A stretch of DNA of 64,000 bases from an uncultured Bacilli bacterium (GTDB taxonomy: Bacteria > Bacillota_I > Bacilli_A > RFN20 > CAG-449): assembly GCA_947591215.1 (NCBI GenBank), contig CANQCZ010000005.1:1630-65629 (forward strand), read 5' to 3'. Below are positions 26,201-47,462 of the stretch, piece after piece. The notes under the pieces are model-generated. The model saw only the letters and a program-made list of their open reading frames with translations. It was not told the origin of the DNA and did not search any database. The position numbers were made by a program, and so were the translations under genes. The number at the start of each line of letters is the position of its first letter. Within the stretch, counting starts at the first letter, position 1.

Positions 26201-26322
26201 AGATGTATTAAAAATTATGCAATATAATTCCTTACCTCTTGGTAAAAAGTAAATTCATAAAAGGCGTTGGCTAGTAGTGAAATATCGAACATCAACGAAG
26301 AATTAGCAAAGGAGTTGAAGTA

Positions 26323-27342
26323 ATGAAAACAATTAAAAACCTTTATAGTAATTTACTCTCAAAAGAGAAAATAAAATTAATTCTTTTAAAGAGTATCAAA
26401 GGCAAACCGTATGCTTTGAAAATTCAAAACAATGTTGACGAATATGTTAACCTTACTTATGAACATTTAGTAAATGAAACATACGACTTAAAGCCTGTAA
26501 AAAAAGTTATAATTCATGATAGAAAAAAAGATCGTGAAATAACGAAAAGTCCTTATTATCCTAATAAAATTTTTGATTATTTAATTGTCAGTCAATTAGA
26601 AAGCATGATAACAAAATCAATGTTTCATTGGTGTATTGGTAATGTTAAAGGACGTGGAAAAGATATCGGGCTATCTTACTTAGAAAAACACATGAAAAAT
26701 TACAAGTATGCTTTAAAACTCGATATTAAAAAATTCTATGATAACATAGATAAAAAAATCTTACTGAATCTTTTGTCAAAAAGAGTTCATGACAAAAAAT
26801 TTCTCAATTTTTATAGTAAGGTCGTCGGTCAAGATGGAAAAGGACTTGACTTAGGGCTTAATTCAAGTCAATGGCTTTCCAATTTTTATCTTCAAGGATT
26901 AGATTATTATATCAAACAAACATTAAAAGCTAAAATATACGTCCGATATGTAGACGATATGATAATTTTAGGAAACAACAAGCGCCGTCTTCATTATTAT
27001 ATAAGAGCGATTCAAGATTATTTATACAAAAATTTAGGATTACGGCTAAAAGAGAATTATCAGCTGTTAAACCTCACTAAAAACGATCAAATAGAATTTT
27101 TAGGATATAAGTTAACACCAAAAGAAACCACTCTTATTAAGCCATTGTTTTATCGTTTCGTGAGGTTATATAAGAGAATGGGTGATAAGTCTAAAAGACG
27201 TGCTAAAACTCTTGTATCATTGTGGGGTTGGTTTAAACGATCTACTTATTCTTATGTTTATTATAAAAAGTATCTTGAGCCAATTATACCATTTAAAAAT
27301 ATAAGAATGTTATTACAAAAAAGGAGGAAAAAATTAGCATGA
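26323..27342 (+). CDS. DGR reverse transcriptase
   Basis: RT motifs, including YVRYVDDMIILG (YxDD box). Size 339 aa. Immediately downstream of TR. Confidence 0.85.
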   Translation: MKTIKNLYSNLLSKEKIKLILLKSIKGKPYALKIQNNVDEYVNLTYEHLVNETYDLKPVKKVIIHDRKKDREITKSPYYPNKIFDYLIVSQLESMITKSMFHWCIGNVKGRGKDIGLSYLEKHMKNYKYALKLDIKKFYDNIDKKILLNLLSKRVHDKKFLNFYSKVVGQDGKGLDLGLNSSQWLSNFYLQGLDYYIKQTLKAKIYVRYVDDMIILGNNKRRLHYYIRAIQDYLYKNLGLRLKENYQLLNLTKNDQIEFLGYKLTPKETTLIKPLFYRFVRLYKRMGDKSKRRAKTLVSLWGWFKRSTYSYVYYKKYLEPIIPFKNIRMLLQKRRKKLA

Positions 27343-27956
27343 AAATAAATGATGTTATTACACAAAGTTTTAAAAAACAATTAATCGAAAATCTTAATAA
27401 AATTGGTATTACTACTTCTAGTATTGAATGTATTTTGCTTGAGGGAAGTGCGTTATATCTACAACAACCGAACGATATTGATTTTAAAGTAATACTAAAA
27501 CGTTATTTCAATAAAGCAGAGATGAGAAGATGTTTTTTCATCAATGGTTATACGGTTGAATGCGTTTATTACACATTTGATGATTGGGCGAATGTAACTA
27601 AATATAAGTCAAACGCTCAATATATCGTTGAAAGTAAAGACATGATTTGTATTTATGGTAACGATTCAAAATTTTTTAGATATGATGTTGTTACTAATAA
27701 AGAATTGCAAAGCTATATTATAAATGTCTATGATAAACTTTTTTTCAATTATAAAGAAAACGATAAAACTAATAAAATGAGCGACAAGCGGTTATGGAAT
27801 TTTCTATTATTTGCATTCAAATTACAAAATAATGACGATAATTTATCAGACGAGCAATTAGAATTGTTACAAAAAGCACATGATTTGGAATTAAACAAGG
27901 AAGATTATTTACCTTTATTTAATGAATTAAAAGAAAGAATTTTAATTACATCATAA
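27339..27956 (+). CDS. Nucleotidyltransferase-fold protein, translationally coupled to the RT. Possible DGR accessory or moron gene.
   Basis: The ATG overlaps the RT stop (ATGA). Minimal NTase motif LEGSALYLQQPNDIDFKV (GS-x9-DxD). Confidence 0.4.
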   Translation: MKINDVITQSFKKQLIENLNKIGITTSSIECILLEGSALYLQQPNDIDFKVILKRYFNKAEMRRCFFINGYTVECVYYTFDDWANVTKYKSNAQYIVESKDMICIYGNDSKFFRYDVVTNKELQSYIINVYDKLFFNYKENDKTNKMSDKRLWNFLLFAFKLQNNDDNLSDEQLELLQKAHDLELNKEDYLPLFNELKERILITS

Positions 27957-27969: not shown

Positions 27970-28296
27970 TTGGTGTCGAAATTATCATCAACACCTGTTT
28001 CAGATCATGACAGCATAATTCAACTCGATGGTGAAATTAAATCGATTAAACGACGTGTAAGTGCGATAGAAAAACAAATAGCCGTAACTCAAGACTTAAC
28101 ATTATCAGTCAATAAACTTGCCACTAATATGGATAATATGCTTAAAGAACAAGTAAAACAGGGTGAACGGTTAGATAAAATGGAACGTGCACCAATAGAA
28201 GAGGCAAAATATTACAAACGACAAATTATCAGTTGTATTATTACATCAATCGTTGGAGCGATTGTCGGGGCAATCTTATGTTTAATTTTAAAATAA
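27970..28296 (+). CDS. XhlA-like lysis-associated membrane protein
   Basis: N-terminal coiled coil plus a single C-terminal TM segment (IISCIITSIVGAIVGAILCLIL). RBS AGGAGG. Confidence 0.4.
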   Translation: MVSKLSSTPVSDHDSIIQLDGEIKSIKRRVSAIEKQIAVTQDLTLSVNKLATNMDNMLKEQVKQGERLDKMERAPIEEAKYYKRQIISCIITSIVGAIVGAILCLILK

Positions 28297-28308
28297 GGAG
28301 GAACCCAC

Positions 28309-28695
28309 ATGAAAGAAATATTATTATATATTGTCGAGGGATTAATTTCTGTTTTATTAACCGTCATTACAGCTTATCTCATTCCATACTTAATAAATAA
28401 GTATTCAAATGATAAAAACAAAAAAATGCTTCTTGCACTTAATGATGTTATATCAAATGGTGTAAAAAATATTTATCAAACGTTTGTTCAAGAAATAAAA
28501 GGAACAGATAAATGGACTAAAGAAACGCAAGAAGAAGCGTTAAAAAAATGCTATTTATTTATTCAAGAGAATTTAACAGAAGATCTAAAAAATTGGTTGA
28601 ACAAATACTCTAACGACATAGAAGCATTTATCAAAGGTCTTATTGAAGCAGAAATTTATTCTCTTAAAGCAATTAATTCAAAGACTGTAGCTTAG
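28309..28695 (+). CDS. Holin
   Basis: 128 aa with an N-terminal TM (LLYIVEGLISVLLTVITAYLIPYLI) and a charged C-terminus. RBS AGGAGG. Sits at the end of the phage late operon. Confidence 0.5.
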   Translation: MKEILLYIVEGLISVLLTVITAYLIPYLINKYSNDKNKKMLLALNDVISNGVKNIYQTFVQEIKGTDKWTKETQEEALKKCYLFIQENLTEDLKNWLNKYSNDIEAFIKGLIEAEIYSLKAINSKTVA

Positions 28696-29483
28696 CGACG
28701 AATTATTATTCCTAATGTTAAATACTTAAAAATATAAAGGGGTTCGTATAAATTATCAAATGCCCCGCCAGGAAATAGAATCTCGTTCTATTATAAGAAA
28801 TAATAGAGCGATTTTTTATTTTTATAGCACTTTCGTGGTAGTTCGTTAACTTTGTAGACCATAGAATTTTTTGGGAATTTATCAAATTAATAATTTTAAA
28901 GTTTTTTAATTAAAAAAATAGGCTTTGTTTTTGTAAAGTGATAGTTTAGGGTCATATAGAGTTTGAACCCTATCGTGTATTATGGGTTTGAACTTTTTAA
29001 GATAAAAAATATCTACCAAAATTGAACTTTGATAGATGATTTTTTCTATTTAAGCATGAATGACAATCCTAAATTCACATGTAAATATTGTGGCTCTTTC
29101 CTTATAAGTAATTGTTCCTTTAAATAAAGATATGTTTGTTTCGTTTAACAGGTATCATTTTAGAAAATAGATCTCGAAAAGAAATGTCGAACAAATCATT
29201 AATATTTTTGCTTTGTTTAATGATAGAAACATATGTCGAGGGGTTATCTATTATAGAAGAATTAACGTTTTGTGTTTGGATTTTTGATAATTCTCTCATT
29301 AGTTCTTTAACTTTAAGGATGATGCTTTATTTTATTACTAAAGAAAATACACTTGTGTGTTCTTCCAATATTATACTTTTTAATATGTTCAAGAGGTTCT
29401 TTGAGTTTTATTGACAAATTTAACGTATATGTTAATATTTTTAGCGGTACTAAAAATCAAATTATCGGATGGAGGGTTTTGGT

Positions 29484-30923
29484 ATGAGAATTGATTTAAA
29501 AAATTATGATAAGGAAACTGAATTTAAAGAAATAATTGATGAGTATATTTTTCCATTATTAGGAATGAAAGGAGATAATATTCAAAAAATTCCTGATAAA
29601 GATAGTTTCTTTAAAAATACGCATAATGAAATTATTTTTTTTGAGAAACAAAAAATTTATTTTTTACCATATAAAAATTCGAAATGGGGATATTTTATTG
29701 ATACAGTGAAATGTATGAATAATTTTAATTTTACATTATGCAGGAAAGTATTAGCAAAATTAGTTTCGGTTGCCAATAATAATTTAAAGATTGGCACTCA
29801 AAAAAATTTTAAGTATATAAACGAGCAGCAGTGCATTTCTAGCTATGAAGTTGCGGTTCAAACTTCAATATGTGAATACTTAACAAACAATAATTCAGCT
29901 GATAAAAATGATACTATGAAAACTTTGCTGAATTTATTAGACAAATTACAAAAGTGGGCTTTAAAAACATATGAAGGAAAAAAAGTTCCTTTTGGTTTTG
30001 TAATTGATATGAAGGAAATCTCTAAAACAAAATTAAACTATTTGGAATTTTTGGGCGATGAATTTTCGGCTACTATTTCTGATGGTATTTCTTCAGTAGT
30101 AGTTATTGATAAATATGGTAATTATCTTGATTATAAATCTATTGTAGAAAATAATAAAATTAAAGCTTGTCAGTTGAATAATTGTTTGCCTATTCGTTTT
30201 GCTCAAATAATAAATGAAAATGTAAGCGAAAATTCATTAAGAATAGGTGTTTTTCTTTTGACAGGCGGAGATATTTTCATCGCAAAAAATGGCAAAATAG
30301 ATTTAATAAAACGTAATGGTAGGTGGGCTAATTTTTCTTACCAAAGCTTTTTAAATGTTATGGAAAGATATAATAATACTGAGGATATTGATAAACAAAT
30401 TTTGATGGAAGTTTTTTCGAGTGCTATTGATGTATCATTATCTCATTGTGGTGGAATTATCGCGATAGTAAAGGATGGAATGGAATTGAAGAATTCAGAA
30501 ATGGAATCGAAGGATGCAGAAAAAGAAAATATTCTTAGCGAGTGTGATAATCTTCTTGTTTCTAAGAATGATGATGAGCTTAAAGATGCACTTAGCAAAA
30601 AAGAAAATGAATATAATATTAATAAACGGCTTTATAAAAGAAATATGATTAAAAATTTATTAAATGGTAAGAAATTATTTATAAATATAGATAGAAAATT
30701 GAGAGCTGAATTAATTGGTTTAGATGGTGCAACAATTATTCAAAAAGATGGTTCGGTTGTTGCGTTCGGTGCTATTATTCAAAATGAAAAAGGATCAACC
30801 GGTGGAGGAAGAGGAGCGGCAGCTAAATTGTTATCTAGATATGGCGGTTTTGCAATCAAAATTTCAACAGATGGTTACATTGAAGTATATATGAATAGGG
30901 AATTGAAATATTATATTAAATGA
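29484..30923 (+). CDS. Uncharacterised 479-aa protein whose C-terminal region has degenerate DAC (DisA_N)-like motifs
   Basis: RBS GGAGGG 7 nt before the ATG at 29484. C-terminal GLDGATIIQKDGSVVAFGAII...GSTGGGRGAAAKLL resembles the DGA...GTRHRAA core of diadenylate cyclases, but the RHR motif is not conserved. Two upstream degenerate copies of the DG-x-hhI-x-DG hairpin motif. Confidence 0.3.
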   Translation: MRIDLKNYDKETEFKEIIDEYIFPLLGMKGDNIQKIPDKDSFFKNTHNEIIFFEKQKIYFLPYKNSKWGYFIDTVKCMNNFNFTLCRKVLAKLVSVANNNLKIGTQKNFKYINEQQCISSYEVAVQTSICEYLTNNNSADKNDTMKTLLNLLDKLQKWALKTYEGKKVPFGFVIDMKEISKTKLNYLEFLGDEFSATISDGISSVVVIDKYGNYLDYKSIVENNKIKACQLNNCLPIRFAQIINENVSENSLRIGVFLLTGGDIFIAKNGKIDLIKRNGRWANFSYQSFLNVMERYNNTEDIDKQILMEVFSSAIDVSLSHCGGIIAIVKDGMELKNSEMESKDAEKENILSECDNLLVSKNDDELKDALSKKENEYNINKRLYKRNMIKNLLNGKKLFINIDRKLRAELIGLDGATIIQKDGSVVAFGAIIQNEKGSTGGGRGAAAKLLSRYGGFAIKISTDGYIEVYMNRELKYYIK

Positions 30924-30976
30924 AAACACACATGTATTGCTTTGTAATATATTGCATATAATATTGATGAAAACAT

Positions 30977-31005
30977 TTGACGTATATCTTTATTTGTGCT
31001 ACAAT
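30977..31005 (+). promoter_or_regulatory. Sigma-A-type promoter: TTGACG, 17-nt spacer, TACAAT
   Basis: Hexamers read directly at 30977-30982 and 31000-31005. No ORF downstream. Confidence 0.5.
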
Positions 31006-31011
31006 GTTTTC

Positions 31012-31140
31012 ACTTGAAAGGTGATATAACATCGCGTGTTAATATCAGATTAGCTGTTAATCGTTTGATTAATAGTTAAGTACAACAAATAAGTATTATT
31101 TGTTAAAAAGCCCGGGTCCAATTGGAACTTGGCTTTTTTT
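31012..31140 (+). ncRNA. Candidate small non-coding RNA, about 130 nt, between the promoter and a T-rich terminator
   Basis: Promoter at 30977-31005. Imperfect hairpin aagcccgggtccaattggaacttggctt, then T7 at 31134-31140. No ORF longer than 6 codons. Confidence 0.3.
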
Positions 31141-31527
31141 ATTGCGCGATTTGTGTAAAATATTTTTTGTAATTCTTGCGATGATTTTGAAAAAAGAATA
31201 GAAAAAGTATCCAAAAAATTAGCACAACAAGAATTTGATGCTATTAAAATGCCGATTATAAGGAAAGTCTCACTGGAAATATTGTAAACAATACATTGAG
31301 AGTAGATGGTAAAAGGATGCGTAATTCAAACATATTTGATTTATTAAAACAAAAAAATAAAAAATATCCATTGGCTTTTAAATTGCAACCCTAGACTCTT
31401 GATGAAATTATAGAATAGCAACTTATTATTGGTAAAGGCAAGTTGTTATGTAATGAATCTAAATGATGAACCATTTGGAATGATAAAAAAGAGAGACATT
31501 GAAGCATTTGAGATTGATAAGAAAAAA

Positions 31528-32523
31528 TTATTTAACAGAAATTTTATTATATGCTTTATTGGCAAAGTAATAATAATTCTTTAATGAATTAATTATTTTA
31601 TTTGGAGATAGTACGATTGCGTGTTCGCCAAAACGTCTAAAGTATTGTTCTACTTGAGCGTATGAGCAAGAGAAGTAATAAATATCTCCCTCGATTTTAG
31701 AACATTGAGGACGATATAAATATATTCTTTTAAACAGTTCTTTTCCTGTTGGAGTTAGTTGTACTTTTATTTCTTCGTTTTCATAAGGTTTAATTGAATA
31801 TTGAATTCCATATTTTATTTGCTTATTAAATATCTCTTCTTGATGAGGTAAAATTTCTCTTTTACTTGTAAGCAAAATGACATCTTTTATTTTGGCTAAA
31901 CGAACTGTATGTAATATTCCGTTTTCAGCGACAAAAAGACCATAGTTAAATAATTCATCTTTAGATGAAGAAATCGTGTAAAGAGAAGCTTCATTAATTA
32001 CTGCTCCAGAAGTTAAAGATAAATATACTTTCACATTACTATCTATTGATTTAGATAATAATGCATAGTTTTGTTTAAAGATTATCCTTTCTCTTTCTGG
32101 TTGGACTTTAGAAGCGTATGAAGTGAATAATCTTCTAAAGTAAGAAGAGATTGATTCGGTTTTTACAAAGTTATTTAAAATAAAATAAATTGCTTTTGAT
32201 GAGATCTTTGTTGGCTTAAATAAGAAAGAAACCGATTTATTACTTTGATCAACAGATGAATTCTTTTTATCAATTACTTTTACTAGTTTATGATATACTT
32301 CTTCCTTTTCTTCATCAGAAATATTTTTTATCACGCTAAAAACATCTAATCTAAATTTATCATCGAGTGCGGAGAACTCTTCATAATAATTATTTATTAA
32401 TGTGTTAATGAATAAGTTTCTATTAAGATTATTTTCTCCCTTATAAAATAAAAAGTTTTCACAGTCTTTTAATAAAATATTGTATGTGTTTAAATCTAAA
32501 GTTACTTTAATTTTTTCTTCCAT
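31528..32523 (-). CDS. Putative WYL/WCX-domain regulator (BrxR/CapW-like C-terminal half)
   Basis: C-terminal GDIYYFSCSYAQVEQYFRRFGEHAIVLSPNKI resembles the WCX domain. The preceding ENGILHTVRLAKIKDVILL region resembles a WYL-type barrel. No clear N-terminal HTH. Confidence 0.35.
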   Translation of the reverse strand: MEEKIKVTLDLNTYNILLKDCENFLFYKGENNLNRNLFINTLINNYYEEFSALDDKFRLDVFSVIKNISDEEKEEVYHKLVKVIDKKNSSVDQSNKSVSFLFKPTKISSKAIYFILNNFVKTESISSYFRRLFTSYASKVQPERERIIFKQNYALLSKSIDSNVKVYLSLTSGAVINEASLYTISSSKDELFNYGLFVAENGILHTVRLAKIKDVILLTSKREILPHQEEIFNKQIKYGIQYSIKPYENEEIKVQLTPTGKELFKRIYLYRPQCSKIEGDIYYFSCSYAQVEQYFRRFGEHAIVLSPNKIINSLKNYYYFANKAYNKISVK

Positions 32524-32686
32524 AGTGTTAATCCTTATGAAAAGTGTATCAAAAAAGGGTACAAAAATTCAACGGAAATACATATATATTTAACTAGTTA
32601 TTTTTAGGGGTACGAAAAAAAATAAAAATTTGCTATCTATTATTAATAAAGTAACCCATTTATAATTTTGTTGTAAGGGCGAAGAG

Positions 32687-34861
32687 GTGAGCAAAATGAA
32701 AAAAGAGTTATTAATGAAATTATTATCAAAAGATTATTTGGTCTTAAATTTTTCTTCTAAAGTAAATTTTAATAGCCAATTAAATATTGATTTAATCAGT
32801 GCGATTGATCATTCTTTTAAATCGTTAGGTTTTAAGATTAAAGATGAAGAATTAATTAAATTAATATCTATATCTCGAGATGATTTAACATCTTTTTATC
32901 ATGATAACTATAAGTTATTATCTTCGTTTGTTGGAAATAGTGTTAAACATAAGATTTTCTACGCTAATTTTCCTGAGATATCCAATATACCAGAGAAAGA
33001 AATGTATACTCGTGCTTTTTTACATTATTTAACTGCATCGGAAAATGATGATGGTTTTATGTCTCAAGATATAAATGATTTTGAACGTGAAGAAGTTCAT
33101 TCTGATAACAAAGTAATCTTAAAACTTATTAACGAACAAGAAGCAAACAAAATCCTTATTGATTTAGTAAGGGATATGTTTGAATCGAAACAAGCGATAT
33201 CTTGTGATGAAACAAACTTTATCTTATCTTGCTTTCAAAATCTTTTTGATAAGGAAAGTTTATATTATTTGATTGATGATATTCCTTTTAAAGAGAATAT
33301 TGCTATCTATGTAAATACAATAAGAAAGCTATATCCTAATGAAACTAAATTGGGTGACATTTTCAATGAAAAAATTCTTTCTTTTATTAAAACTCCAACT
33401 GATTTACTAAGAGTGTATGCGATTATTTCAAATGGTGATTATACTTTAAATGATAATAGTATATTTATCTCACTTGATAGAAAGTGTCGTCGATTATTTT
33501 TAGCAATATTAAACAATATGTGCGCTAATAAAGATTATGTCTACGATGACTTTTCAAGACATGATTTTTTATGGAAAAAAGCATTTGAAAAACTTCATGT
33601 TGGTGAATATGAAAAACAATATCCTCATATCTATTTAGTATGTAAAAATATTAGAGAGGATAATTATTCTACATATTATTCGATGCTTGAAAAGAATAAG
33701 AATAATCAAGTGGGTTTGATATCATTATTACGTAAAAGACCAGGAGAATTTGCTCGTAGATTAGATATGCTTTTACGCAATGCATCTTTTGAAACTGAAT
33801 ATACACTTCAAGAGTTTGAAAAAATTGCTGATCAAGTATCCTCTAATGTTTTGTTACAATTATATACATTCTTTCAAAATAGAAATCTTTATTCTACTCG
33901 TATTTTTTGTATCAAAAAATTATACTATAACAGTTATATTGAAGTAGAGGATAAAAGAGATGATATTCCGGACTATACTATTGAAAGAATATGTGCAATA
34001 ATTCTTAATGCATTGAAAAATATTTATTCATCTTATCCTAGAATAGAAAATGTCTATTTAGACGAATCGATGAAAAATTATGCAATGCCTATGAATTCAC
34101 GTAATAAATCAACAGGAAATAAGACGCTTACTTTTGGTACGAGAATAAAATTAGATGAAGAAGACGGATCATTTATTCGTTTCTTTACTCATTGGAAAAA
34201 TATGAATGAAGGAAATGGTAAACGTGTTGATATTGATTTATCGGTTGAACTTGTAAATGAAGATTTTACATCTACAAGAAGTGTATCATGGCACGATTTA
34301 TTTGGTGGTAGAAAATTTGATACATACCATTCAGGTGATATTGTTACTGCACCAAATGGAGCAAGTGAATTCGTTGATTTAGATTACATTAGTGCAAGTA
34401 AATATTATCGTTATGGTGTGATTTGTAATTACGTTTTCACGGGACAAAATTTTTGTGATATACCAGAATGCTTTTCTGGCGTTATGTTTATGAAAAAGAA
34501 AGGGAAAAGAGGTGTAGTTTTTAATCCGGAATTTGTTAAGTATAAGTATGACTTAACCCAATATGGATCAAGTGAGAATATTGCTTTGGCAATCGATTTT
34601 AAAACTCGTGAACTTATTTGGATGGATATACCTCGTTCAAGTGGTAGAATGTATCAAATTGCAAGTGGTGATAGCGGAGTAGTTATTGCATTAAAAAATG
34701 CTTTAAAAAAGCAAATGAATATGTATGAATTTATTAAACTACATTCATCTCATTTAACCTTTGTAGATGATATATCACAAAGTGAGTTTATTATCTCTGA
34801 CAAAGAGAATGCGACATTGAAACCATATGATGTAGAAAAAATAACTGCATCATGGTTATAA
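32687..34861 (+). CDS. Large uncharacterised protein (724 aa) with a C-terminal TerD-like domain
   Basis: Residues from about 480 to 610 align block-wise with TerD (IRFFTHWKN / GKRVDIDLSVELV / VSWHDLFGG..YHSGDIVTAPNGASEFVDLDY / YRYGVICNYVFTG). The Ca-binding GDGDDE motif is degenerate (PNGASE). Confidence 0.45.
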   Translation: MSKMKKELLMKLLSKDYLVLNFSSKVNFNSQLNIDLISAIDHSFKSLGFKIKDEELIKLISISRDDLTSFYHDNYKLLSSFVGNSVKHKIFYANFPEISNIPEKEMYTRAFLHYLTASENDDGFMSQDINDFEREEVHSDNKVILKLINEQEANKILIDLVRDMFESKQAISCDETNFILSCFQNLFDKESLYYLIDDIPFKENIAIYVNTIRKLYPNETKLGDIFNEKILSFIKTPTDLLRVYAIISNGDYTLNDNSIFISLDRKCRRLFLAILNNMCANKDYVYDDFSRHDFLWKKAFEKLHVGEYEKQYPHIYLVCKNIREDNYSTYYSMLEKNKNNQVGLISLLRKRPGEFARRLDMLLRNASFETEYTLQEFEKIADQVSSNVLLQLYTFFQNRNLYSTRIFCIKKLYYNSYIEVEDKRDDIPDYTIERICAIILNALKNIYSSYPRIENVYLDESMKNYAMPMNSRNKSTGNKTLTFGTRIKLDEEDGSFIRFFTHWKNMNEGNGKRVDIDLSVELVNEDFTSTRSVSWHDLFGGRKFDTYHSGDIVTAPNGASEFVDLDYISASKYYRYGVICNYVFTGQNFCDIPECFSGVMFMKKKGKRGVVFNPEFVKYKYDLTQYGSSENIALAIDFKTRELIWMDIPRSSGRMYQIASGDSGVVIALKNALKKQMNMYEFIKLHSSHLTFVDDISQSEFIISDKENATLKPYDVEKITASWL

Positions 34862-35077
34862 AAAGCATTCAGGCTTAATGATCACTTACTTCTAATAAGC
34901 GAGAAAGCGAGAAATTAGTGACAAACTTTCCTGAATGCTTATAAACAAGGCTTATTATTACATACTTCTAGATTAACAAGAATGTCGAGCATTAGCTCGA
35001 CGCAGAATTGTAATAGACTTTCCTTGTTTTCTAATCACATTTTCTATTTTTTAGTGAACATATCGCTTGTTCATGCC

Positions 35078-35103
35078 GAGGAGCTACACTCCTCATTTTT
35101 TTT
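35078..35103 (+). terminator. Rho-independent terminator
   Basis: Stem gaggag, loop ctaca, stem ctcctc, then a T8 run. Confidence 0.65.
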
Positions 35104-35214
35104 AAAGTAATTTTTCAATCTATGTTTATACATAAACTAGTGGGACAAATTTAAATAACAAGCATTTTAAATATAGTAATTTAAGGTACATAGACAAAAT
35201 TTCTTTAATTGTTA

Positions 35215-35260
35215 AAAAAATTAACATCTTATTTGCAAAATTAACATTAGAATTGAAAAT
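35215..35260 (+). promoter_or_regulatory. Direct repeats AAAAATTAACAT-(N10)-AAATTAACATT upstream of the XRE-TM paralog
   Basis: The same repeat pair recurs at 38075-38120 at the same distance (about 83 nt) from the start of the paralogous gene. Confidence 0.45.
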
Positions 35261-35301
35261 ATATGAATTATAATTTGATTGAGATTGGGGGTGATCTTTA
35301 A

Positions 35302-36021
35302 ATGAAGTTTAATGAAAGGCTAAAAGCATTAAGAAAAACGCATAATTTAACACAAGTTGAACTTGCGAAAAGATTATATGTTAGTCGTTCACTGGTTGCA
35401 AGATGGGAATATGGCGATATTTATCCAACAATTGCTAATCTTAATAAAATTTCCGATTTTTTTAACATTCCCATGAGCGATATTTTGAGTGAAGATGAAA
35501 AAACCGAAATAATAGTTCGTCAGGCAAACTTAGAGAAAAAAATAAAAAATGGATTAAGAATCACTATGAATTTTGTTAATTTCGCTTTGTCTTTGCTTAT
35601 TTTATCAATCTTTTTTCCATTATTGCCGATATGGGGATACACTCATGAAATAATTACGAGCACGGAACCTTTATTAAAGATTACAATTACTGAACAAGAT
35701 TTATTTAGGGTTTTAAATGATACTTTTTATAATACTGGATTAAAAACAGCATACGTCTTTATCATGATTTTAGAAATTATTTCATTAATAATTTCTTTAT
35801 TTTCATTAGTAGTTTCATTCTTAAGAAAGAAACAAAAATTGAGTTGTTTTATATTTATGATAAGTTGTTCTATTAACATTATTCTTTCTTTGCTTATTTT
35901 TTCAAGTTTTATTGCAAAAAGGCCTTTAAATATTATTGGTGGTTTTTTCCTATTCTTATTAGTGTTATTAGCAATCATATCATCTATTTTTATTGCAAAA
36001 CAAAGGAAAGGAAATTTATAA
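35302..36021 (+). CDS. Membrane-anchored XRE-family HTH regulator (paralog 1)
   Basis: N-terminal HTH_3 pattern LKALRKTHNLTQVELAKRLYVSRSLVARWEYGD, then 4-5 hydrophobic TM segments. Confidence 0.6.
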   Translation: MKFNERLKALRKTHNLTQVELAKRLYVSRSLVARWEYGDIYPTIANLNKISDFFNIPMSDILSEDEKTEIIVRQANLEKKIKNGLRITMNFVNFALSLLILSIFFPLLPIWGYTHEIITSTEPLLKITITEQDLFRVLNDTFYNTGLKTAYVFIMILEIISLIISLFSLVVSFLRKKQKLSCFIFMISCSINIILSLLIFSSFIAKRPLNIIGGFFLFLLVLLAIISSIFIAKQRKGNL

Positions 36022-36400
36022 AGAATGCATAAAACAAATTTTTGTAAACTAATAATATATTAAAGCCGTTTTGAATTGTGTATTATTTGCGTTCTAGTTT
36101 TGGAAAATTGTTGTTATTCGCGTTCTTGTAAGACAGGAAAATTAGTTCGTTTAATTATTAAAAGTAGTAGAACGTTTTTTATTAAACATGAATGAAATTT
36201 AAACATTTTTGCTTGTTTTTAAAAGAAGGTAAGCTTTATGTAAAAAAGACAAAGAGGGTTAATGAAATTTTAATAATATTATGCATAAAATATTAATATA
36301 TCAATATCAAGATTCATATTATATTATAAATATTTTTATATAAATATTGATATTTATTTTAAAAATTAGTAAAATTCTTTTAGATAAAGGAGATAATTAT

Positions 36401-37855
36401 ATGTCATTGATTACAGAAGAAAATATATTAAATTTATTATATTCGTACAATTCATGGTGGAGAACAGGAATTGTACAAAAAGAATTTGATAAACCTATTA
36501 AAAGAATTTCTTTTTATGAGGCTCAAAAAAATTTTTGTAACAATGAAATCAGAAGAACAATTTTATTAAGTGGTGCTAGAAGAACTGGAAAAACAACAAT
36601 TATGTACCAAACAATTTCATCTTTAATTACAAAAGGAGTATCACCTAAAAATATTTTATTTATTTCATTTGACCATCAATTGTTAAAAATGTGCAGCATT
36701 CAAGATGTTTTAAATGTTTATGTTTCTAATGTTTCAACAGATAAAGAATTATATTGTTTTTTTGATGAAATACAATATTCTGATAATTGGAATAGTTGGC
36801 TCAAAATTTTATATGATACCAATCCAAATATAAAGATAATGGCTACTGGTTCCGCTAGCCCAATTTTGGAAGATAAAGTAAAAGAAAGTGGATTGGGTAG
36901 ATGGATAACGATACAAGTCCCTACACTATCTTTTTTCGAATATTGTGAATTATTGCACATTGAAAACCCAGAATTACCCAAAGGGATGAAACCTACTCAA
37001 TTATATTTGCTTACGCAACAAGAACAAACGGATATAATGAAAAAATTATCATTTCTACAATCTCATTTTATAAGATATTTACAAGTAGGTGGTTTCCCAG
37101 AACTTGCTTTATCAAGCGATGATATTTATGCTCAAAGAATACTTAGAGAAGATATTGTCGATAAAGCAATAAAAAGAGATTTGCCTGCAATTTATTCGAT
37201 AAGAAACATTAATGATATTGAAAAAGTATTTTTATATCTATGTTATAATTCATCTAATATTATAAATATTCAAGCGATTTGCAAAGAATTAGAGGTTAAT
37301 AGGATAACATTAGAAAAATACATAAAATATTTAGAAAGTGCAAATCTCATTTATATCAGTAAATTAATCAATATGAGTTCAAAACAAATACTAAAATCGC
37401 AGAATAAGATCTATATAGCCGATGCTGCGATAAGAAATGCAGTTTTAATGAAAGATGATATCACTAATGATCCTACTGAATTAGGAATTGTGGCAGAAAC
37501 TGCGGTTTACAAACATGTAAAAGCATTCAGTTATGATGGATTAGCGAATGTTGGATACTTTAGAGGTGGCGAAAAAAATAAAGAAATTGATATTGTTGTT
37601 AAATACCATCAAGCATTAACTCCTATTATGATTGAGGTTAAATATAGAGAAGATTCAAAAATCACAGATAAAGATTTAATTGTGGAATTTTCTGATGTTA
37701 AATTGCCAAATCTTGTAGTTACAAAGAAAATTGATGATTTTGGATTATTTAAATATAAAAACGGAAAGTCAATATATAAGATTCCCGCACCAGTATTTTT
37801 ATATCTTTTAGGTTATGTTGAAAGTAACAAGTTAAAAGAAAGCATGCATTTTTAA
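36401..37855 (+). CDS. AAA+ ATPase of the AAA_14/DUF4143 (COG1373) family
   Basis: RBS AGGAG, then ATG at 36401. Walker A LLSGARRTGKTT. Walker B CFFDEIQY. Confidence 0.7.
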   Translation: MSLITEENILNLLYSYNSWWRTGIVQKEFDKPIKRISFYEAQKNFCNNEIRRTILLSGARRTGKTTIMYQTISSLITKGVSPKNILFISFDHQLLKMCSIQDVLNVYVSNVSTDKELYCFFDEIQYSDNWNSWLKILYDTNPNIKIMATGSASPILEDKVKESGLGRWITIQVPTLSFFEYCELLHIENPELPKGMKPTQLYLLTQQEQTDIMKKLSFLQSHFIRYLQVGGFPELALSSDDIYAQRILREDIVDKAIKRDLPAIYSIRNINDIEKVFLYLCYNSSNIINIQAICKELEVNRITLEKYIKYLESANLIYISKLINMSSKQILKSQNKIYIADAAIRNAVLMKDDITNDPTELGIVAETAVYKHVKAFSYDGLANVGYFRGGEKNKEIDIVVKYHQALTPIMIEVKYREDSKITDKDLIVEFSDVKLPNLVVTKKIDDFGLFKYKNGKSIYKIPAPVFLYLLGYVESNKLKESMHF

Positions 37856-38074
37856 TAAAAAATGAAAGAAATTATGAAACTAAATAAGTTAAACGAATTG
37901 ACTTAATTCACAGATAGAATTAGAAAAATTTAGAAGTTATGCTTTAAATTTTGTTGCCAAAAATTTTAGCAAGTTTTACTTCAATTAACTTATGGCGATT
38001 TAAACTTTTTTGGTTAATGATTTTTAAAATTTAGCACTTTCGTGATAAATGAATTGAAATTTTTAATTGCCGAT

Positions 38075-38120
38075 AAAAAATTAACATTTAACTTCATAAA
38101 TTAACATTCTAGTATTAGGA
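38075..38120 (+). promoter_or_regulatory. Direct repeats AAAAATTAACAT-(N10)-AAATTAACATT, second copy
   Basis: Same motif pair as at 35215-35260. Confidence 0.45.
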
Positions 38121-38153
38121 TTAAGATTTATAATTTTCTTGTAAAAGGAGAGG

Positions 38154-38792
38154 TTGGCAATGAAGTTTAATGAAAAATTAAAATCATTAAGAAAAGAACA
38201 TAATCTTACTCAAGTTGAACTGGCGGAAAGTTTATATGTCAGTCGGTCACTGGTCGCAAGATGGGAATATGGCGATATTTATCCCACGATAGAGAATCTT
38301 AATAAAATATCATCTTATTTTGATATTCCGATAGGCAATCTATTATGCGAAGATGAAAAAACAGAAATAATAGTTCATCAAGTAAACTTGGAAAGAAAAA
38401 TAAAGAAAGTATTGAGAATATCATTGCTAACATTGATTATAGTTTATTCAATTGTCATGCCAATAGTATATTGTTTAAAGGTATTTTCCATTACCGGATT
38501 TGGCTATTTAGGAAACAATTATACAAGTAGCGAGATAGATTTTAATGTTTTTCATTATTCAGTTGTAGATTGTATTTTGCCTGAAGATTCATGGTTATTA
38601 GTCGTCTCACCATTGACAAATTTAGTATTAATTATTTTGGCTATTTTAGCTTTTAGTTTAAAAAGAAAAAGAATAAAAAATATTTTAATATTTGTTACCA
38701 CTATTTTATTTATTGTTTCATTGGTTTTTGTCATTTTGACATTTGTGCTTGGCACAAAGCATCCGATTGGAATTCTTCCAAAATTCATGTAA
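38154..38792 (+). CDS. Membrane-anchored XRE-family HTH regulator (paralog 2)
   Basis: The N-terminal 75 aa are about 80% identical to paralog 1. C-terminal TM segments. Confidence 0.6.
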   Translation: MAMKFNEKLKSLRKEHNLTQVELAESLYVSRSLVARWEYGDIYPTIENLNKISSYFDIPIGNLLCEDEKTEIIVHQVNLERKIKKVLRISLLTLIIVYSIVMPIVYCLKVFSITGFGYLGNNYTSSEIDFNVFHYSVVDCILPEDSWLLVVSPLTNLVLIILAILAFSLKRKRIKNILIFVTTILFIVSLVFVILTFVLGTKHPIGILPKFM

Positions 38793-39178
38793 GTAACAAG
38801 GAAAGTGATATTTATTTTTGAAGAAATAACTGAAAATAAATTAAAAAAGTTAAGTACATTATAAGTGAAATTGATGAGCAAACTTATATTTCCGTTAGTC
38901 CAAAGAATGTTATATATTAAGTTTTAACTTATACTTTTTAGTCACTTTAACAAGTTTTTTTAAATTAATCAGATAAAATTTATATAAATAAAACAAGTTG
39001 TCAAAATTCTTTATGATTAAAATTAAGGAAATTCAACACTTTGTTATTATCGTAAATAAAGAATTAACAATGTTACTGAAGCTTTAACGATGCTTTATCT
39101 TTGCTTATTGATATAATATTGACAAGAAAAATAACTGCGACATTTTTCTAAATATTATTAAAGGAAGGAGTAGCAAAG

Positions 39179-39787
39179 ATGAAATTTCCGGACAAATTAA
39201 AAAATTTACGAAAAGAGAAGGGATTGACACAAGAAGAATTGGCTTCTAAAATATTTGTCTCAAGAAGTCTAATTGCTAGGTACGAAAATGGAAGTGTTGT
39301 GCCGTCTAAAGAAAATCTAGAAAAATTATCTTTATTCTTTGATTTAAGACTTTCTGATTTCATCGATAAAGAAGATATTGTTGGATTAACATTATCACAA
39401 AATAAGACAGCTTTGATTATGGAAAGATTTTTTTCCATTTTAATCATCATAGTTAATGGATTATTTAGTTTTATATCATTGTTGCCGATTTTTAAACTTA
39501 AAAGATATTATTATTATGAAGGTAACTTAGTTCCGAATTTAGAGACAAAATTTTTTAGTTTTGTTCAAATAACGCTTCTAAATAACAATTCAATTGTCTT
39601 AATAACGATTATTTTTTGTGCAATAAACCTATGTCTAAGTATTGCATGCCTAGTAAAGCAGAATTTTAAACATCGAATTTGGATTAAAATGATTAATTAT
39701 GTATTGTTTGTTTTAATTTTATTTTTAATTTTCTTTTCTATAGTTTTTTCAGTAATATACCTAAATAACAATATTTATGATTATTAA
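39179..39787 (+). CDS. Membrane-anchored XRE-family HTH regulator (paralog 3, more divergent)
   Basis: LKNLRKEKGLTQEELASKIFVSRSLIARYENG HTH plus TM segments. Confidence 0.55.
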   Translation: MKFPDKLKNLRKEKGLTQEELASKIFVSRSLIARYENGSVVPSKENLEKLSLFFDLRLSDFIDKEDIVGLTLSQNKTALIMERFFSILIIIVNGLFSFISLLPIFKLKRYYYYEGNLVPNLETKFFSFVQITLLNNNSIVLITIIFCAINLCLSIACLVKQNFKHRIWIKMINYVLFVLILFLIFFSIVFSVIYLNNNIYDY

Positions 39788-40011
39788 CGATTTCATATAA
39801 AATGTAGAATATAACCGGAAATATTGTCGTTATATTCAAAATTTATCGGAGTATAACTCGATAAACTTCTTGATTATATGATTATTAAACAATAATAAGG
39901 ATTCGTAAAAAAGACTAAGAAACTTCTTTTAAAATTGCCTATATTTTAAACGATAAATAAGCTATCTAGTAAAAATTCTTTAACGATGATATAATCATTA
40001 ATGGTGAGAAA

Positions 40012-40530
40012 ATGAAAGAATTATTGATTGTCGTCGATTTTCAAAATGATTTTGTTGACGGGGCGTTAGGATTTCCTAAAGCCAGCGAAATCGAAGATTA
40101 CATTTTAGCTAGAATCAAAAAAGCGAGGGATGTTAAAGAAGATATTATCTTTACTTTGGATACACACGACAAAGATTATTTAAATACCGAAGAGGGAAAA
40201 AATCTTCCGTGTCCTCATTGCTTAAAAAACAGTAAAGGTCATGAATTATACGGAAAAGTTAAAGAGGTTCAAGATTTCGGTTTGGTATTTGAAAAAGATA
40301 CTTTTGGATCAAGAAAGCTTCTGGAATATTTGATTGAGCACCCATACGATAAAATTACGCTTTTGGGATTGGTTTCCAATATGTGTGTCTTTTCAAATGC
40401 GGTAATCGCCAAAACCGCGTGCCCCAATGCCCACATCTTGATTGATTCAAAAGGGAGTCGCTCTTTTGATGAAGACTTAGAAAATAAATGTTATGAAGTT
40501 GCCAAAGGTCTTCAAATTGAGATTATTTAA
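40012..40530 (+). CDS. Isochorismatase-family cysteine hydrolase (nicotinamidase PncA-like)
   Basis: VVDFQNDF N-terminal motif. Catalytic Cys context LLGLVSNMCVF. Confidence 0.7.
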   Translation: MKELLIVVDFQNDFVDGALGFPKASEIEDYILARIKKARDVKEDIIFTLDTHDKDYLNTEEGKNLPCPHCLKNSKGHELYGKVKEVQDFGLVFEKDTFGSRKLLEYLIEHPYDKITLLGLVSNMCVFSNAVIAKTACPNAHILIDSKGSRSFDEDLENKCYEVAKGLQIEII

Positions 40531-40929
40531 ATGAAAGAATTTAAGCCGTTATTAATCAAAGTGACAGTTGTTGACTTAGGATTATTCATACTTAGTTCTT
40601 TCTGCTTCTTTATCGGTCGTATGGAAATACCATTAGGTTTCTTGTTGGGAGCGACGATTGGACTATTAAATTTCTTGTTGATGTATTTCCAATTTAAGAT
40701 ACTTATCGTACCGCAACAGGAAAAAAGAATCAGATTAAAATCGGGATTAAGTTTTATAACTCGTTTCATCATTTACGGACTAGGTTTGGCACTTGCGTTG
40801 CTTCTTGAAAAGAATGGTTATAAAATCTTTGCGTGGTATACAGTTTTCATAGGTTATTTGATGCTTAAAATAGTAATGTTAGTCGACAATTATTTACAAA
40901 CAAGAAAAGATCGTAAATCAAAAGGATAA
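40531..40929 (+). CDS. atpI: ATP synthase protein I
   Basis: Small polytopic membrane protein heading the atp operon. Confidence 0.55.
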   Translation: MKEFKPLLIKVTVVDLGLFILSSFCFFIGRMEIPLGFLLGATIGLLNFLLMYFQFKILIVPQQEKRIRLKSGLSFITRFIIYGLGLALALLLEKNGYKIFAWYTVFIGYLMLKIVMLVDNYLQTRKDRKSKG

Positions 40930-40948
40930 GAAAGAGAGGAAATACAAT

Positions 40949-41479
40949 ATGAATATCTGGCATGACATCAATCCCGAAAGAGTGACTAAAGAGAAGTTTG
41001 TCGCTTGTGTTGAAATTTCATTAGGAAGCAAAAACAAATATGAACTCGATAAAGAAACGGGGTTATTGAGATTAGATCGAATTCTTTATACTTCGACTCA
41101 TTATCCAGCTAATTATGGCTTTATTCCGCATACTTATGCCGGTGATAATGACCCGTTAGATGTGCTTGTGATTTGTAACGAACCTTTAGTACCGATGACT
41201 TTAGTAGAATGTTATCCAATCGGAGTGATCAAAATGATGGACCAAGGCGAAGTCGATGAAAAAATCATCGCGATTTGTGCTCACGATCCGCTTTATTCTA
41301 ACTTTCACTCGATGGAAGAATTACCTAAGCACATTTTCGATGAGATAATGCACTTTTTTAAAGTATATAAAACCCTTGAAAATAAGGAAACTTCTGTCAA
41401 ATCATGCGATGATAAAGAAGAAGCGATGAAAGTCATAGATTTGGCCATAAAAAATTACAATCGAGTTTTCAGAAAATAA
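40949..41479 (+). CDS. ppa: Inorganic pyrophosphatase (family I)
   Basis: Motifs ERVTKEKFVACVEISLGSKNKYE, YPANYGFIP and DGDNDPLDVLV. Confidence 0.85.
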   Translation: MNIWHDINPERVTKEKFVACVEISLGSKNKYELDKETGLLRLDRILYTSTHYPANYGFIPHTYAGDNDPLDVLVICNEPLVPMTLVECYPIGVIKMMDQGEVDEKIIAICAHDPLYSNFHSMEELPKHIFDEIMHFFKVYKTLENKETSVKSCDDKEEAMKVIDLAIKNYNRVFRK

Positions 41480-41551
41480 TGTTTTTATAGTGTAAAAAAC
41501 GAGAACTTTTGGTAAAATTAACCTAGATTTAAAATAGAAAAGAGCGAGCAC

Positions 41552-42283
41552 ATGACTTTATTCAGTTTACCGCAATCGACAGTAGTAGGATTACCGGGTG
41601 AGATTTATACAAGTTTACTCATCTGTTTGGTTTTGCTCGTATTTTGTTTGGTGGTAAAAATTAAATCAAGAAAGGTCGATCCTTTAAAAAGACCGAAAGG
41701 GATTATGCTCCTTGCCGAAATGGCAGTTACCAAAGTCGATAAAATGGTCACTGAAAATATGGGGCGACAATTTCTTTGGGCGGCACCATATATCGCTTTT
41801 GTGATGGCATTTTTATTTTTGTCTTTTACTAGCGGCTTATTTGGGTTGCCTTCGCCGGTTGGATATTATATGATCCCGTTAAGTTTTGCACTCATCACTT
41901 TTATCGCCATTCACGTCACCAGTATCGTCTATACCAAAAAAAATTATTATAAACGCTATTTAGAACCATTCTTTTTCTTTTTACCTATCAATTTAATCTC
42001 GATGTGGGCACCGCTTTTATCGTTGTCTTTACGTTTGTTCGGCAACGCTTTGGCCGGTTGGGTTTTGATGAGTCTTGTCTACAATGTATTTTATGAATTA
42101 AGTGTCAGCCTTGTCGGACTACCATTACCGATCGCCTCGGTTGTCACACCGTTTTTACACGCTTATTTTGATGTGTTTGCCGGTTTTATTCAGGCACTTG
42201 TGTTTACAATGCTGACGATGCTTTTGATTTCAAGCGAAGTTCCTGATGAATTTAAAATGCAAGAAAAAACAAGTTTACAATAG
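41552..42283 (+). CDS. atpB: F0F1 ATP synthase subunit a
   Basis: Polytopic membrane protein with the conserved LSLRLFGN motif. Confidence 0.85.
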   Translation: MTLFSLPQSTVVGLPGEIYTSLLICLVLLVFCLVVKIKSRKVDPLKRPKGIMLLAEMAVTKVDKMVTENMGRQFLWAAPYIAFVMAFLFLSFTSGLFGLPSPVGYYMIPLSFALITFIAIHVTSIVYTKKNYYKRYLEPFFFFLPINLISMWAPLLSLSLRLFGNALAGWVLMSLVYNVFYELSVSLVGLPLPIASVVTPFLHAYFDVFAGFIQALVFTMLTMLLISSEVPDEFKMQEKTSLQ

Positions 42284-42301
42284 TTAAAAGGAGGAAACTA
42301 T

Positions 42302-42592
42302 ATGATACAAGCATTAACCGAAGTTGTAGAAGCAACAGTTGCCGGAGGTTACAACGAATTCTTCGTGCAAGGAATGGGTGCTCTAGCGGCTGGAATTGCG
42401 ATTTTAGCCGGCCTTGGTCCTGGTATTTCCGAAGGTATCGCGGCTAAAGGCGCAGTTGAAGGAGTAGCTAGAAACCCGGAAGCTGCCGGACAAATAAGAA
42501 GCATGCTCATGTTAGGCTGTGCTTTGACTGAAACGACGGCTATTTATGGTTTATTGATCTCGATGCTTTTACTTTTCTTGGTTGCGATGTAA
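42302..42592 (+). CDS. atpE: F0F1 ATP synthase subunit c
   Basis: Two-helix proteolipid with GLGPGISEG and an ALTETTAIYGL-type carboxylate helix. Confidence 0.85.
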   Translation: MIQALTEVVEATVAGGYNEFFVQGMGALAAGIAILAGLGPGISEGIAAKGAVEGVARNPEAAGQIRSMLMLGCALTETTAIYGLLISMLLLFLVAM

Positions 42593-42598
42593 TCGTTT

Positions 42599-43141
42599 AT
42601 GATCACTTTTTTTGATATTAGCAACATTGCGCCGGATCCTAGCGACATTATCAATAAATTGTTCCCTAATGGGTGGCAGCCTTTAGTTATTCAACTTGTT
42701 GCCACTTTGGTAATGTTCCTTATTGCTAGCAAATTGTTATTTAAGCCGGTACGCGAGATTTTGAAAAAACGCGCCGATTATGTTGAAAATAACATCAAAG
42801 AAGCGGAAAAATCTGCACTTGAGGCTAGCAATAAAAATAAAGAAGCTGATCAAAATATTCTAGAGGCTAAAGCTCAAGCTTCTTTAATTCTTGAAAATGC
42901 TAAAAACGACGCTTTGGTCGTTAAAGAGCAATTAGTTGCGGATGCTCATCAAGAAGTTTCATTGTTAAAAGATAAAGCATATAAAGAGATCGAACAAGAA
43001 AAGCAAAAAGCTCGCGAAGAAATCAATCGTGAAATTGTCGATGTTGCACTTTTGGCTTCAAATAAAATTTTAAAGCGAGAAGTTAACGATTCAGACAACA
43101 AGCGTTTAGTTGAAGATTTTATAAAGGATGTCGTTAACTGA
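42599..43141 (+). CDS. atpF: F0F1 ATP synthase subunit b
   Basis: N-terminal TM plus a long charged helix. Position in the operon. Confidence 0.8.
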   Translation: MITFFDISNIAPDPSDIINKLFPNGWQPLVIQLVATLVMFLIASKLLFKPVREILKKRADYVENNIKEAEKSALEASNKNKEADQNILEAKAQASLILENAKNDALVVKEQLVADAHQEVSLLKDKAYKEIEQEKQKAREEINREIVDVALLASNKILKREVNDSDNKRLVEDFIKDVVN

Positions 43142-45191: not shown

Positions 45192-45222
45192 TTAAAAATC
45201 ACTTTAAAGGAGGTGAGCGGCA

Positions 45223-47462
<2,240 letters not shown>

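Follow-up and report, generated by a model that had tools for sequence, protein, structure and literature searches.

An AT-rich island between a prophage and the atp genes of an uncultured Bacilli bacterium raises the question of whether a run of adjoining, uncharacterised genes constitutes one system or several. The island (positions 29130-39990) lies in a 64,000-nucleotide (nt) stretch of contig CANQCZ010000005.1 (assembly GCA_947591215.1), which we call the window and whose numbering is used throughout. The original prediction had proposed that its seven genes and an orphan small RNA (sRNA) form a single undescribed signalling or defence module. We examined this proposal by comparing the window with sister metagenome-assembled genomes (MAGs) and with individual loci that carry homologues of the island genes (each designated by L and a number).

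Judged by these sequence comparisons, the island is not one system but a mosaic in which three accessory modules, here called A, B and C, lie side by side without being linked. Two of the modules pair a protein with structured RNA: a 479-amino-acid (aa) protein of DAC fold with an RNA of about 130 nt (module A), and a 721-aa protein, composed of an alpha-solenoid and a TerD-fold domain, with tandem hairpin RNAs (module B). Both pairings are well supported by the comparative evidence. The joint explanation that we favour, to which we assign a probability of about 0.55, adds to the mosaic two mechanisms that we infer by analogy: module A would be an RNA-gated abortive-infection enzyme, and module B a Ro60/Y-RNA-like ribonucleoprotein (RNP).

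Boundaries and composition of the island

Two sister MAGs (L004 and L005) are colinear with window positions 31520-44856 at 96.5-97.5% identity, a span that takes in the WYL gene and the ATPase/XRE cluster and reaches into the atp genes; where the window has 29087-31519, they carry about 148 bp of unrelated sequence. The 479-aa gene and the sRNA make up this 2.4-kb indel and do not co-occur with the WYL and 721-aa genes at any other locus. Alignment of the junctions at 29087 and 31519 revealed no direct repeats, target-site duplications or inverted repeats. To the left of the indel lies an 83-bp segment of native chromosome (29004-29086), which is 93% identical to positions 2366-2446 of L005. 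Since in that genome esterase genes, and not phage genes, precede the segment, the end of the prophage must lie on its left, which makes the 479-aa cassette an indel of its own; the island is, as had been proposed, close to the prophage end, but native DNA intervenes.

Among 83 loci of the TerD family, a homologue of the 479-aa gene was found only in copies of the source organism, and BLAST clustering of the neighbours of this family revealed lineage-specific synteny only. No protein neighbour of the 479-aa family was conserved beyond near-identical genomes (83 loci, within 3 kb on either side). Co-occurrence of the 479-aa, WYL-like and 721-aa genes across genomes (the last had been given as 724 aa), which the original prediction had singled out for checking, is thus not conserved, and because the 479-aa and TerD families show no conserved co-occurrence, the single module fails on the terms set for it. 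Module C (35302-39787) was kept together with module B in the sister MAGs, and these comparisons gave no evidence of a functional link between it and module A or B. A single system of the seven genes plus the sRNA, in which a nucleotide made by the DAC-like protein is sensed by the WYL and TerD proteins and the response executed by the ATPase, would suit genes adjoining in a single low-GC stretch, and draws on proposals that WYL and TerD domains sense ligands or nucleotides (PMC7159879; PMC7824862), but is very improbable: sister genomes retain all else but have neither the DAC-like gene nor its RNA, no locus outside the source organism combines the genes, and the WYL gene is linked to the closest TerD relatives only.

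As to its parts, the island was accurately described. Its GC content is 0.261, against 0.394-0.400 in the atp region (40012-54000 and 41552-48000) and 0.328 on the prophage side (1-27000), and seven substantial open reading frames (ORFs) lie where they had been placed. The calls of a DAC-like protein (DAC fold, DGA motif present), a WYL protein, a TerD-like C-terminal domain, an AAA_14/DUF4143 ATPase and three XRE regulators were all correct, and the orphan sRNA-like unit is real, with a promoter-like site and a structured RNA. The statement that no ORF matches a textbook system has to be qualified, since the ATPase matches a PADLOC candidate family and the 721-aa protein matches an NCBIfam model below its cut-off; the PADLOC search gave this ATPase match and a weak WYL match for the 331-aa protein, but nothing for the 479-aa protein. 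A defence or conflict flavour received some support (Abi_2 fusions, a CBASS neighbour, contexts of mobile elements and AbiEii genes), but not as a property of one joint module. The source belongs to an uncultured gut lineage of Bacilli; its nearest genome records are rabbit-gut MAGs named 'uncultured Bacilli bacterium', and Candidatus Pelethenecus and Anaeroplasmataceae come next.

The TerD-fold protein and its hairpin RNAs

The hairpin RNAs of module B surfaced as a repeated motif in an alignment of the regions downstream of TerD-family genes. In each unit, of about 75 nt, GG/CC closes the outer stem; inward of it follow an internal loop (CUA/U ... GCUYU), an inner stem of 7 bp and an apical loop, which opens with a near-invariant C-UUCCUUCUA. 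In the window, where module B spans 31528-35102, the predicted transcript of the 721-aa gene runs on into two tandem units; L003 holds four, while five diverged copies fill the 500-bp gap before RtcB in L006. When 20 units were aligned by sequence only with MAFFT, 80% of cells were paired, against 59% after shuffling and 37-50% with the partners slid, and the covariation score was 0.556 (0.176 shuffled). The covariance model R3, searched over 1.66 Mb comprising 83 family sources and 10 controls, gave 85 matches, which lie without exception on the gene's strand and come from 52 of the 83 sources and from none of the controls; across 54 of the matches, 90% of cells were paired and the covariation score reached 0.755, against 0.188. 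The matches come from Bacillota, Bacteroidota, Saccharibacteria, Chloroflexota, Cyanobacteria-related MAGs and one Helicobacteraceae MAG. The units abut the ORF, the first beginning 1-37 nt past the stop codon or the unit ending a few nt before the start codon, and often form a tandem pair.

The C-terminal domain of the 721-aa protein has the fold of the TerD family (PF02342). In the Pfam search the TerD gathering score was not reached: the protein itself gave no match, and one of 55 relatives matched at E 0.049. Residues D512, D514, S546-G547-D548, E558 and D561 are invariant in the family, and may correspond to the acidic calcium-binding motifs of TerD, which they resemble. Across Pfam, NCBIfam, PADLOC and PHROG the protein matched phrog_33734 and, below the cut-off of 600 bits, NF041916 (the MXAN_6230/SCO0854 RING-domain family; 258.7 bits, residues 329-656), and nothing else. 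A RING domain was not matched in the protein, Prok-RING_4 being present in one of 55 relatives; sequence and profile searches of the PDB found no relative, and a search of the literature on SCO0854/MXAN_6230 gave nothing relevant. Large phages and plasmids also carry homologues.

The 331-aa product of the divergent gene gave a weak PADLOC WYL match (1.1e-5, residues 154-315), and several of its relatives, at 36-47% identity, carry PF13280 (a few only) or the NCBI name 'WYL domain-containing protein'. WYL genes stand beside the closest TerD-family relatives, at 37-53% identity (41-47% in the comparison made for the 331-aa regulator), in L003, L004/L005, L006 and L084; the two genes are divergent or convergent, and the WYL/TerD loci elsewhere lie among recombinases, insertion sequence (IS) elements, AbiEii genes and integrases. 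More distant TerD-family genes are without this WYL partner. Other members of the WYL family are divergent from a DUF2828/DUF7788 protein, with RtcB next in one case.

We propose that the hairpin RNAs would either be cut out of the mRNA or act upon it, and would be bound by the solenoid/TerD protein, that the resulting Ro60/Y-RNA-like RNP would act with RtcB-type RNA repair after RNA damage, and that the WYL protein would induce the unit on sensing a nucleic-acid ligand derived from such damage. Module B may then be a Ro60/Y-RNA-like RNP tied to RNA damage and controlled by WYL.

Ro60 modules have the gene layout rsr-yrlBA-rtcBA. Module B resembles these Ro60 (Rsr)/Y RNA/RtcB modules in several respects: a large alpha-solenoid is followed by a C-terminal domain whose family has been described as binding metal; the adjacent, co-oriented structured RNAs have a 5'/3' closing stem and a conserved internal loop; RtcB adjoins the family gene at some loci (L006, L041, L045 and L077); and there is a dedicated regulator. 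Binding of the RNA units by the 721-aa protein is putative, and its C-terminal domain has the TerD fold, not the vWA fold of Ro60/TROVE proteins; TROVE proteins are described as RNA-repair platforms with a tRNA-like partner (PMC7824862). Similarity of the 721-aa protein to Ro60 was not recovered by Foldseek, and the claim of a TROVE relationship was downgraded.

With TerD of the Ter system, which has been linked to phage resistance and of which stand-alone TerD genes occur in phages (PMC7824862), the protein shares the fold, and acidic residues of its domain are invariant. It differs from that system in the fusion of a single TerD domain to a 400-residue solenoid and in its surroundings, where none of TerB, TerC, TerY or the other ter genes was seen. 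The searchable literature describes no RNA partner for Ter proteins and no TerD associated with an RNA motif. The WYL protein is comparable to regulators of the BrxR, CapW, PafBC and DriD type in standing beside swapping cargo (the TerD protein, or DUF2828/DUF7788 with RtcB), but its WYL signal is weak.

The main rival to this interpretation holds that the hairpins are cis elements of the TerD-gene mRNA (autoregulatory protein-binding sites, elements controlling stability or translation, or ligand sensors) and not trans-acting partners. Such elements would be expected where the units lie, only a few nt from the start or stop codon and invariably on the gene's strand, with no promoter of their own in the window, and the CU-rich invariant loop (CUUCCUUCUA) could base-pair with ribosome-binding sites rich in purines. 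From the 3' side, however, a classical leader or riboswitch cannot work, and 16 loci carry units downstream only; the five diverged copies of L006 look more like an array of RNA genes. We consider cis elements possible, at clearly less than even odds.

Several observations weigh against a Ro60-like RNP. Tight abutment on the ORF fits a cis-regulatory element equally well, 31 of the 83 TerD-family loci (mostly of Proteobacteria) gave no R3 match, and RtcB is adjacent in 4 of the 83 only. The TerD-family protein was also compared with DUF2828/DUF7788, the other cargo of the WYL family, and homology between the two was rejected (hhalign probability 0.1). In addition, the role of module B need not be host defence, because homologues occur in large phages.

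Some loci of this family display further features. In L006, a Pelethenecus locus, a gene for a group II intron reverse transcriptase/maturase (positions 38-1357; RVT_1 3e-45, GIIM 2e-19) lies directly upstream of the WYL gene, and a gene for an RNase_T-like exonuclease is found two genes past RtcB. Two Brevibacillus loci carry an extra hairpin copy about 1.8 kb upstream of the family gene (L070, 8064-8133; L080, 8023-8092); this copy is remote from the ORF boundary and may belong to another gene.

The DAC-fold protein and its RNA

In the loci compared, a structured RNA is the sole conserved neighbour of the 479-aa protein family. This family comprises 1346 clusters at 50% identity, and its members occupy unrelated contexts, e.g. 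between rplS and murC, a gap of 360-560 bp always following the gene. The RNA of the window (fold z-score -5.0) aligns with these post-gene gaps of relatives; the covariance model R1 matches it at E 7e-26, and R2 does so at E 2.9e-15. Its conserved loops include CAGAUU. The models were built from 4, later 21, sequences and searched over 77 eligible metagenomic family loci and 10 control loci. At 57 of the 77 family loci and at none of the controls, the RNA was found on the gene's strand, 33-168 nt beyond the stop codon, in matches whose GC content ranges from 27% to 55%.

On the model-fitted alignment, which leans towards structure, 92% of cells were paired, against 66% after shuffling and 37-48% with the partners slid, and compensatory changes were present in 37 of 38 pairs, a number reached by 0 of 500 shuffles. 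A MAFFT alignment of four sequences already contained compensatory changes in 9 of the 38 pairs. The -35/-10 pattern identified upstream of the RNA in the window recurs upstream of it in L089, L097 and L127. Comparison of both RNAs, that of module A and the hairpins of module B, with Rfam 15 gave no relevant match in the window (E<=5) or in 12 related loci of diverse GC content (E<=1); searches at the gathering threshold and in E-value mode recovered only RT-18, in the prophage, and neither new RNA was matched.

The 479-aa protein has the DAC fold (DisA_N, PF02457). The gathering score of this Pfam family was not reached, there being no match for the protein itself and weak matches in 3 of 57 relatives (best E 1.6e-4). 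Pfam, NCBIfam, PADLOC and PHROG searches with the protein gave nothing, PDB sequence searches found no relative, and a profile search of PDB sequences found no DAC. The DGA motif (D414, G415 and A416) is invariant in 57 sequences, its placement relative to the DAC strands being judged by eye. The RHR motif is absent, and the matching loop reads GSxGGGRGAAA, with a single invariant arginine (R443). RHR is required for canonical DAC activity, according to a preprint on defence DACs (10.64898/2026.08.10.743927); because it is altered here, the chemistry of module A may differ from the synthesis of cyclic di-AMP (c-di-AMP). The N-terminal 300 or so residues gave no structural match and no Pfam match, library coverage of the DACNG/DACNH InterPro entries not having been checked. 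Among distant relatives, P0482, P0490 and P0491 carry an N-terminal Abi_2 domain, and P0474 is fused to a radical SAM domain.

The cassette is, from its distribution in sequence collections, mainly chromosomal. One unannotated 6.6-kb fragment in INPHARED and three plasmids carry it, and a pattern scan of 2.9 million IMG/VR contigs confirmed no relative; the idea that it is phage-borne was rejected.

In the mechanism that we envisage for module A, a constitutively made RNA would bind the DAC-fold nucleotidyltransferase and keep the enzyme off, in the manner of type III toxin-antitoxin (TA) systems or AbiF. Loss or displacement of the RNA on infection would allow the enzyme to make a nucleotide product, or to consume nucleotides, and the cell would be arrested. 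Module A would accordingly be classed as an RNA-gated enzyme of abortive-infection or toxin-antitoxin-like type.

Known systems offer partial precedents. Abi_2/AbiF proteins are neutralised through direct binding by their cognate non-coding RNA (ncRNA) (PMC12373285). AbiF/Abi_2 with RCd22, and type III TA systems, resemble module A as strain-variable two-part cassettes of one protein and a co-oriented structured RNA, and Abi_2 is itself fused to distant DAC-like family members; the 479-aa protein, in contrast, is not a HEPN RNase, and its single downstream RNA gives no match to the Rfam abiF motif.

From DisA, CdaA and CdaM/DacM the protein differs in falling below every Pfam threshold, in the replacement of RHR by GGGRGAA, in lacking a membrane anchor and an HhH domain, and in having an RNA as its partner. 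The SEETG motif of DAC enzymes is replaced by STDGY in the 479-aa protein.

DAC enzymes also act in anti-phage defence, in operons whose effectors are CBASS-like genes or the S2TM-beta protein PanE (10.64898/2026.08.10.743927). Like DS-2C of the CBASS-like DS-2 system and PanS of PanS/PanE 'Panoptoo', the 479-aa protein has a DAC fold outside housekeeping, and some of its relatives are found in defence contexts. The DACs of DS-2C and Panoptoo are, however, recognisable by Pfam, possess both DGA and RHR, and are encoded in operons with protein effectors (10.64898/2026.08.10.743927), whereas the 479-aa family has lost RHR, has an RNA partner, and has no conserved effector gene nearby (83 loci, within 3 kb on either side). 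Its size fits neither DS-2C, with its DACNG/DACNH N-terminal domains, nor PanS, a minimal protein of about 150 aa.

The RNA might otherwise be the substrate or primer of the enzyme, whose altered active site would add nucleotides to the RNA end or cyclise it. This is the main rival to gating by RNA, and the active site gives it some footing: DGA and acidic residues are kept, the triphosphate-contacting RHR is replaced by an invariant glycine-rich loop, and the 5' AAAGGUG, which is conserved and single-stranded, could be offered to this site. The RNA ends, however, in an ordinary terminator hairpin, and we know of no DAC-family enzyme that acts on RNA; a role as substrate seems unlikely. That gene and RNA are unrelated neighbours, a divergent housekeeping c-di-AMP synthase beside an independent regulatory sRNA, would agree with the promoter-like site and terminator of the RNA and with the family members found among housekeeping genes, but is scarcely credible when 57 of 77 loci keep the RNA downstream on the same strand while all other neighbours change, and when the gene, unlike an essential cyclase, is an indel between near-identical strains.

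Other findings tell against an RNA-gated abortive-infection enzyme. With RHR reduced to one arginine, the 479-aa protein may not be a cyclase. No RNA match was obtained at 20 of the 77 eligible loci, and no clear RNA was seen beside the Abi_2-fusion genes, which lie on short contigs and gave a weak 25-bit match overlapping the 3' end of the gene and no abiF motif. The RNA is a single downstream unit, whereas type III antitoxins are arrays of repeats placed upstream, and one defence-island context alone was found, other copies lying between housekeeping genes (rplS, murC).

Individual loci of the family provided additional observations. On the Agrobacterium vitis plasmid pRvVAT039d (L177, 4608-10408), a shorter DAC-like relative (30% identity, residues 148-466) is convergent to a complete type II CBASS operon encoding a patatin, a DncV-like CD-NTase, a ThiF-family protein and an MPN protein. 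In L179 (307-5424), an Abi_2-DAC-like fusion gene follows genes for a DNA methylase and an HATPase_c_3 protein; the 425-bp gap upstream of it is AT-rich and palindrome-rich, and gave many weak, meaningless Rfam matches. Two copies of the partner RNA occur in L097 (4507-4627 and 4677-4768, different subtypes in tandem), and in L143 (1692-1804 on the plus strand, 1810-1920 on the minus strand) and L147 (4401-4513 plus, 4518-4629 minus), where the second copy is convergent. The 83 DAC-like loci contain 89 family ORFs, and some may hold two cassettes. A weak match of the partner-RNA model at window positions 48086-48195, on the atp side (24.5 bits, E 0.014), is probably driven by a terminator hairpin.

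Remaining genes of the window and significance of the findings

The features of the island are listed in Table 1. In module C, the ATPase matches AAA_14 (7.9e-32) and DUF4143 (2e-25), and over its full length the PADLOC model PDC-S01 (PDLC04787; 2.6e-62, residues 51-460), which represents a candidate defence family only. Each of the three paralogous XRE regulators has an N-terminal HTH_3 domain, and their C-terminal halves read as hydrophobic. In two of the XRE genes the DNA (35215-35561 and 38075-38419) is 78% identical, including about 85 bp before the start codon; identity extending into the upstream DNA suggests a local duplication that took in the promoter or operator.

Table 1. Positions of the island features in the window (ORF, open reading frame; MFE, minimum free energy)
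Feature	Position	Strand	Remarks
Native chromosomal segment with terminator-like hairpin	29004-29086	+	83 bp; left boundary of the variable segment; holin genes end at 28695
Module A, strain-variable 2.4-kb segment (DAC-fold gene and RNA)	29087-31519		blastn of L004/L005 against the window; junction alignment
479-aa DAC-fold protein gene	29484-30923	+	
Promoter-like site for module A RNA (TTGACG, 17 nt, TG-TACAAT)	30977-31005	+	consensus match only
Structured ncRNA of about 130 nt	31011-31142	+	5' AAAGGUG, hairpins P1, P2 and P3, then intrinsic terminator
331-aa WYL-type regulator	31528-32523	-	divergent from TerD-family gene
721-aa protein, N-terminal alpha-solenoid (about 1-395) and C-terminal TerD-fold domain	32696-34861	+	mechanically called ORF begins with GTG at 32687
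Hairpin RNA unit 1	34864-34939	+	2 nt after stop codon; R3 E 4.7e-10; MFE fold with outer stem, inner stem and conserved loop
Hairpin RNA unit 2	34941-35031	+	tandem with unit 1; R3 E 6.8e-13; MFE fold
Terminator-like hairpin (GAGGAGCTACACTCCTC then T8) closing the TerD-gene/RNA unit	35078-35102	+	consensus match only
XRE-family regulator, 239 aa, predicted hydrophobic C-terminal half	35302-36021	+	HTH_3 8.8e-14
AAA_14/DUF4143 ATPase, 484 aa in public assemblies	36401-37855	+	mechanically called ORF starts at 36347
XRE-family regulator, 210 aa, paralogue of the 239-aa protein	38160-38792	+	N-terminal HTH_3
XRE-family regulator, 202 aa, predicted hydrophobic C-terminal half	39179-39787	+	HTH_3 3.5e-15

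Between the island and atpB, genes for an isochorismatase-family protein, an AtpI-like protein and an inorganic pyrophosphatase (40012-41479) are kept in the sister MAGs. At 26233-27956, inside the prophage, an RNA that exceeds the gathering score of Rfam RT-18 (43.3 bits) is placed immediately upstream of the gene for a 339-aa reverse transcriptase, which matches RVT_1, phrog_1423 (1.9e-66) and the RT, UG17 and Drt3a-like models of PADLOC; it is followed by an overlapping 205-aa ORF with no family match and by holin genes (27970-28695). A search of the window for tRNA and tmRNA genes found none.

Neither of the two protein-RNA pairings was found in Rfam 15 or in the searchable literature, whose coverage is incomplete, so that an earlier description is possible. 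We put forward only tentatively, as less likely to be right than wrong, the idea that the island holds the founding examples of two RNA-protein systems, namely a DAC-fold enzyme with a remodelled active site that is gated by its own small RNA or acts on it, and a phylum-spanning TerD RNP with Y-RNA-like hairpins. If true, the former would add to nucleotide-signalling or abortive-infection immunity a new branch under RNA control, and the latter would connect the enigmatic TerD domain with RNA damage and with repair by RtcB. Covariation is strong in both RNAs, and both are easily testable.

For genome annotation, the results show that this low-GC 'island' consists of several independent acquisitions and not of a single operon-like system. 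DAC enzymes have been tied to anti-phage defence only recently, and a family of them gated by RNA, if confirmed, would extend nucleotide-signalling immunity and add a non-RNase protein to the theme of RNA antitoxins. The TerD domain has for decades been linked to resistance to tellurite, phages and colicins without a mechanism; a co-inherited RNA partner, together with recurrent RtcB neighbours, would provide a testable handle on this domain and point to a role in RNA binding or RNA damage.

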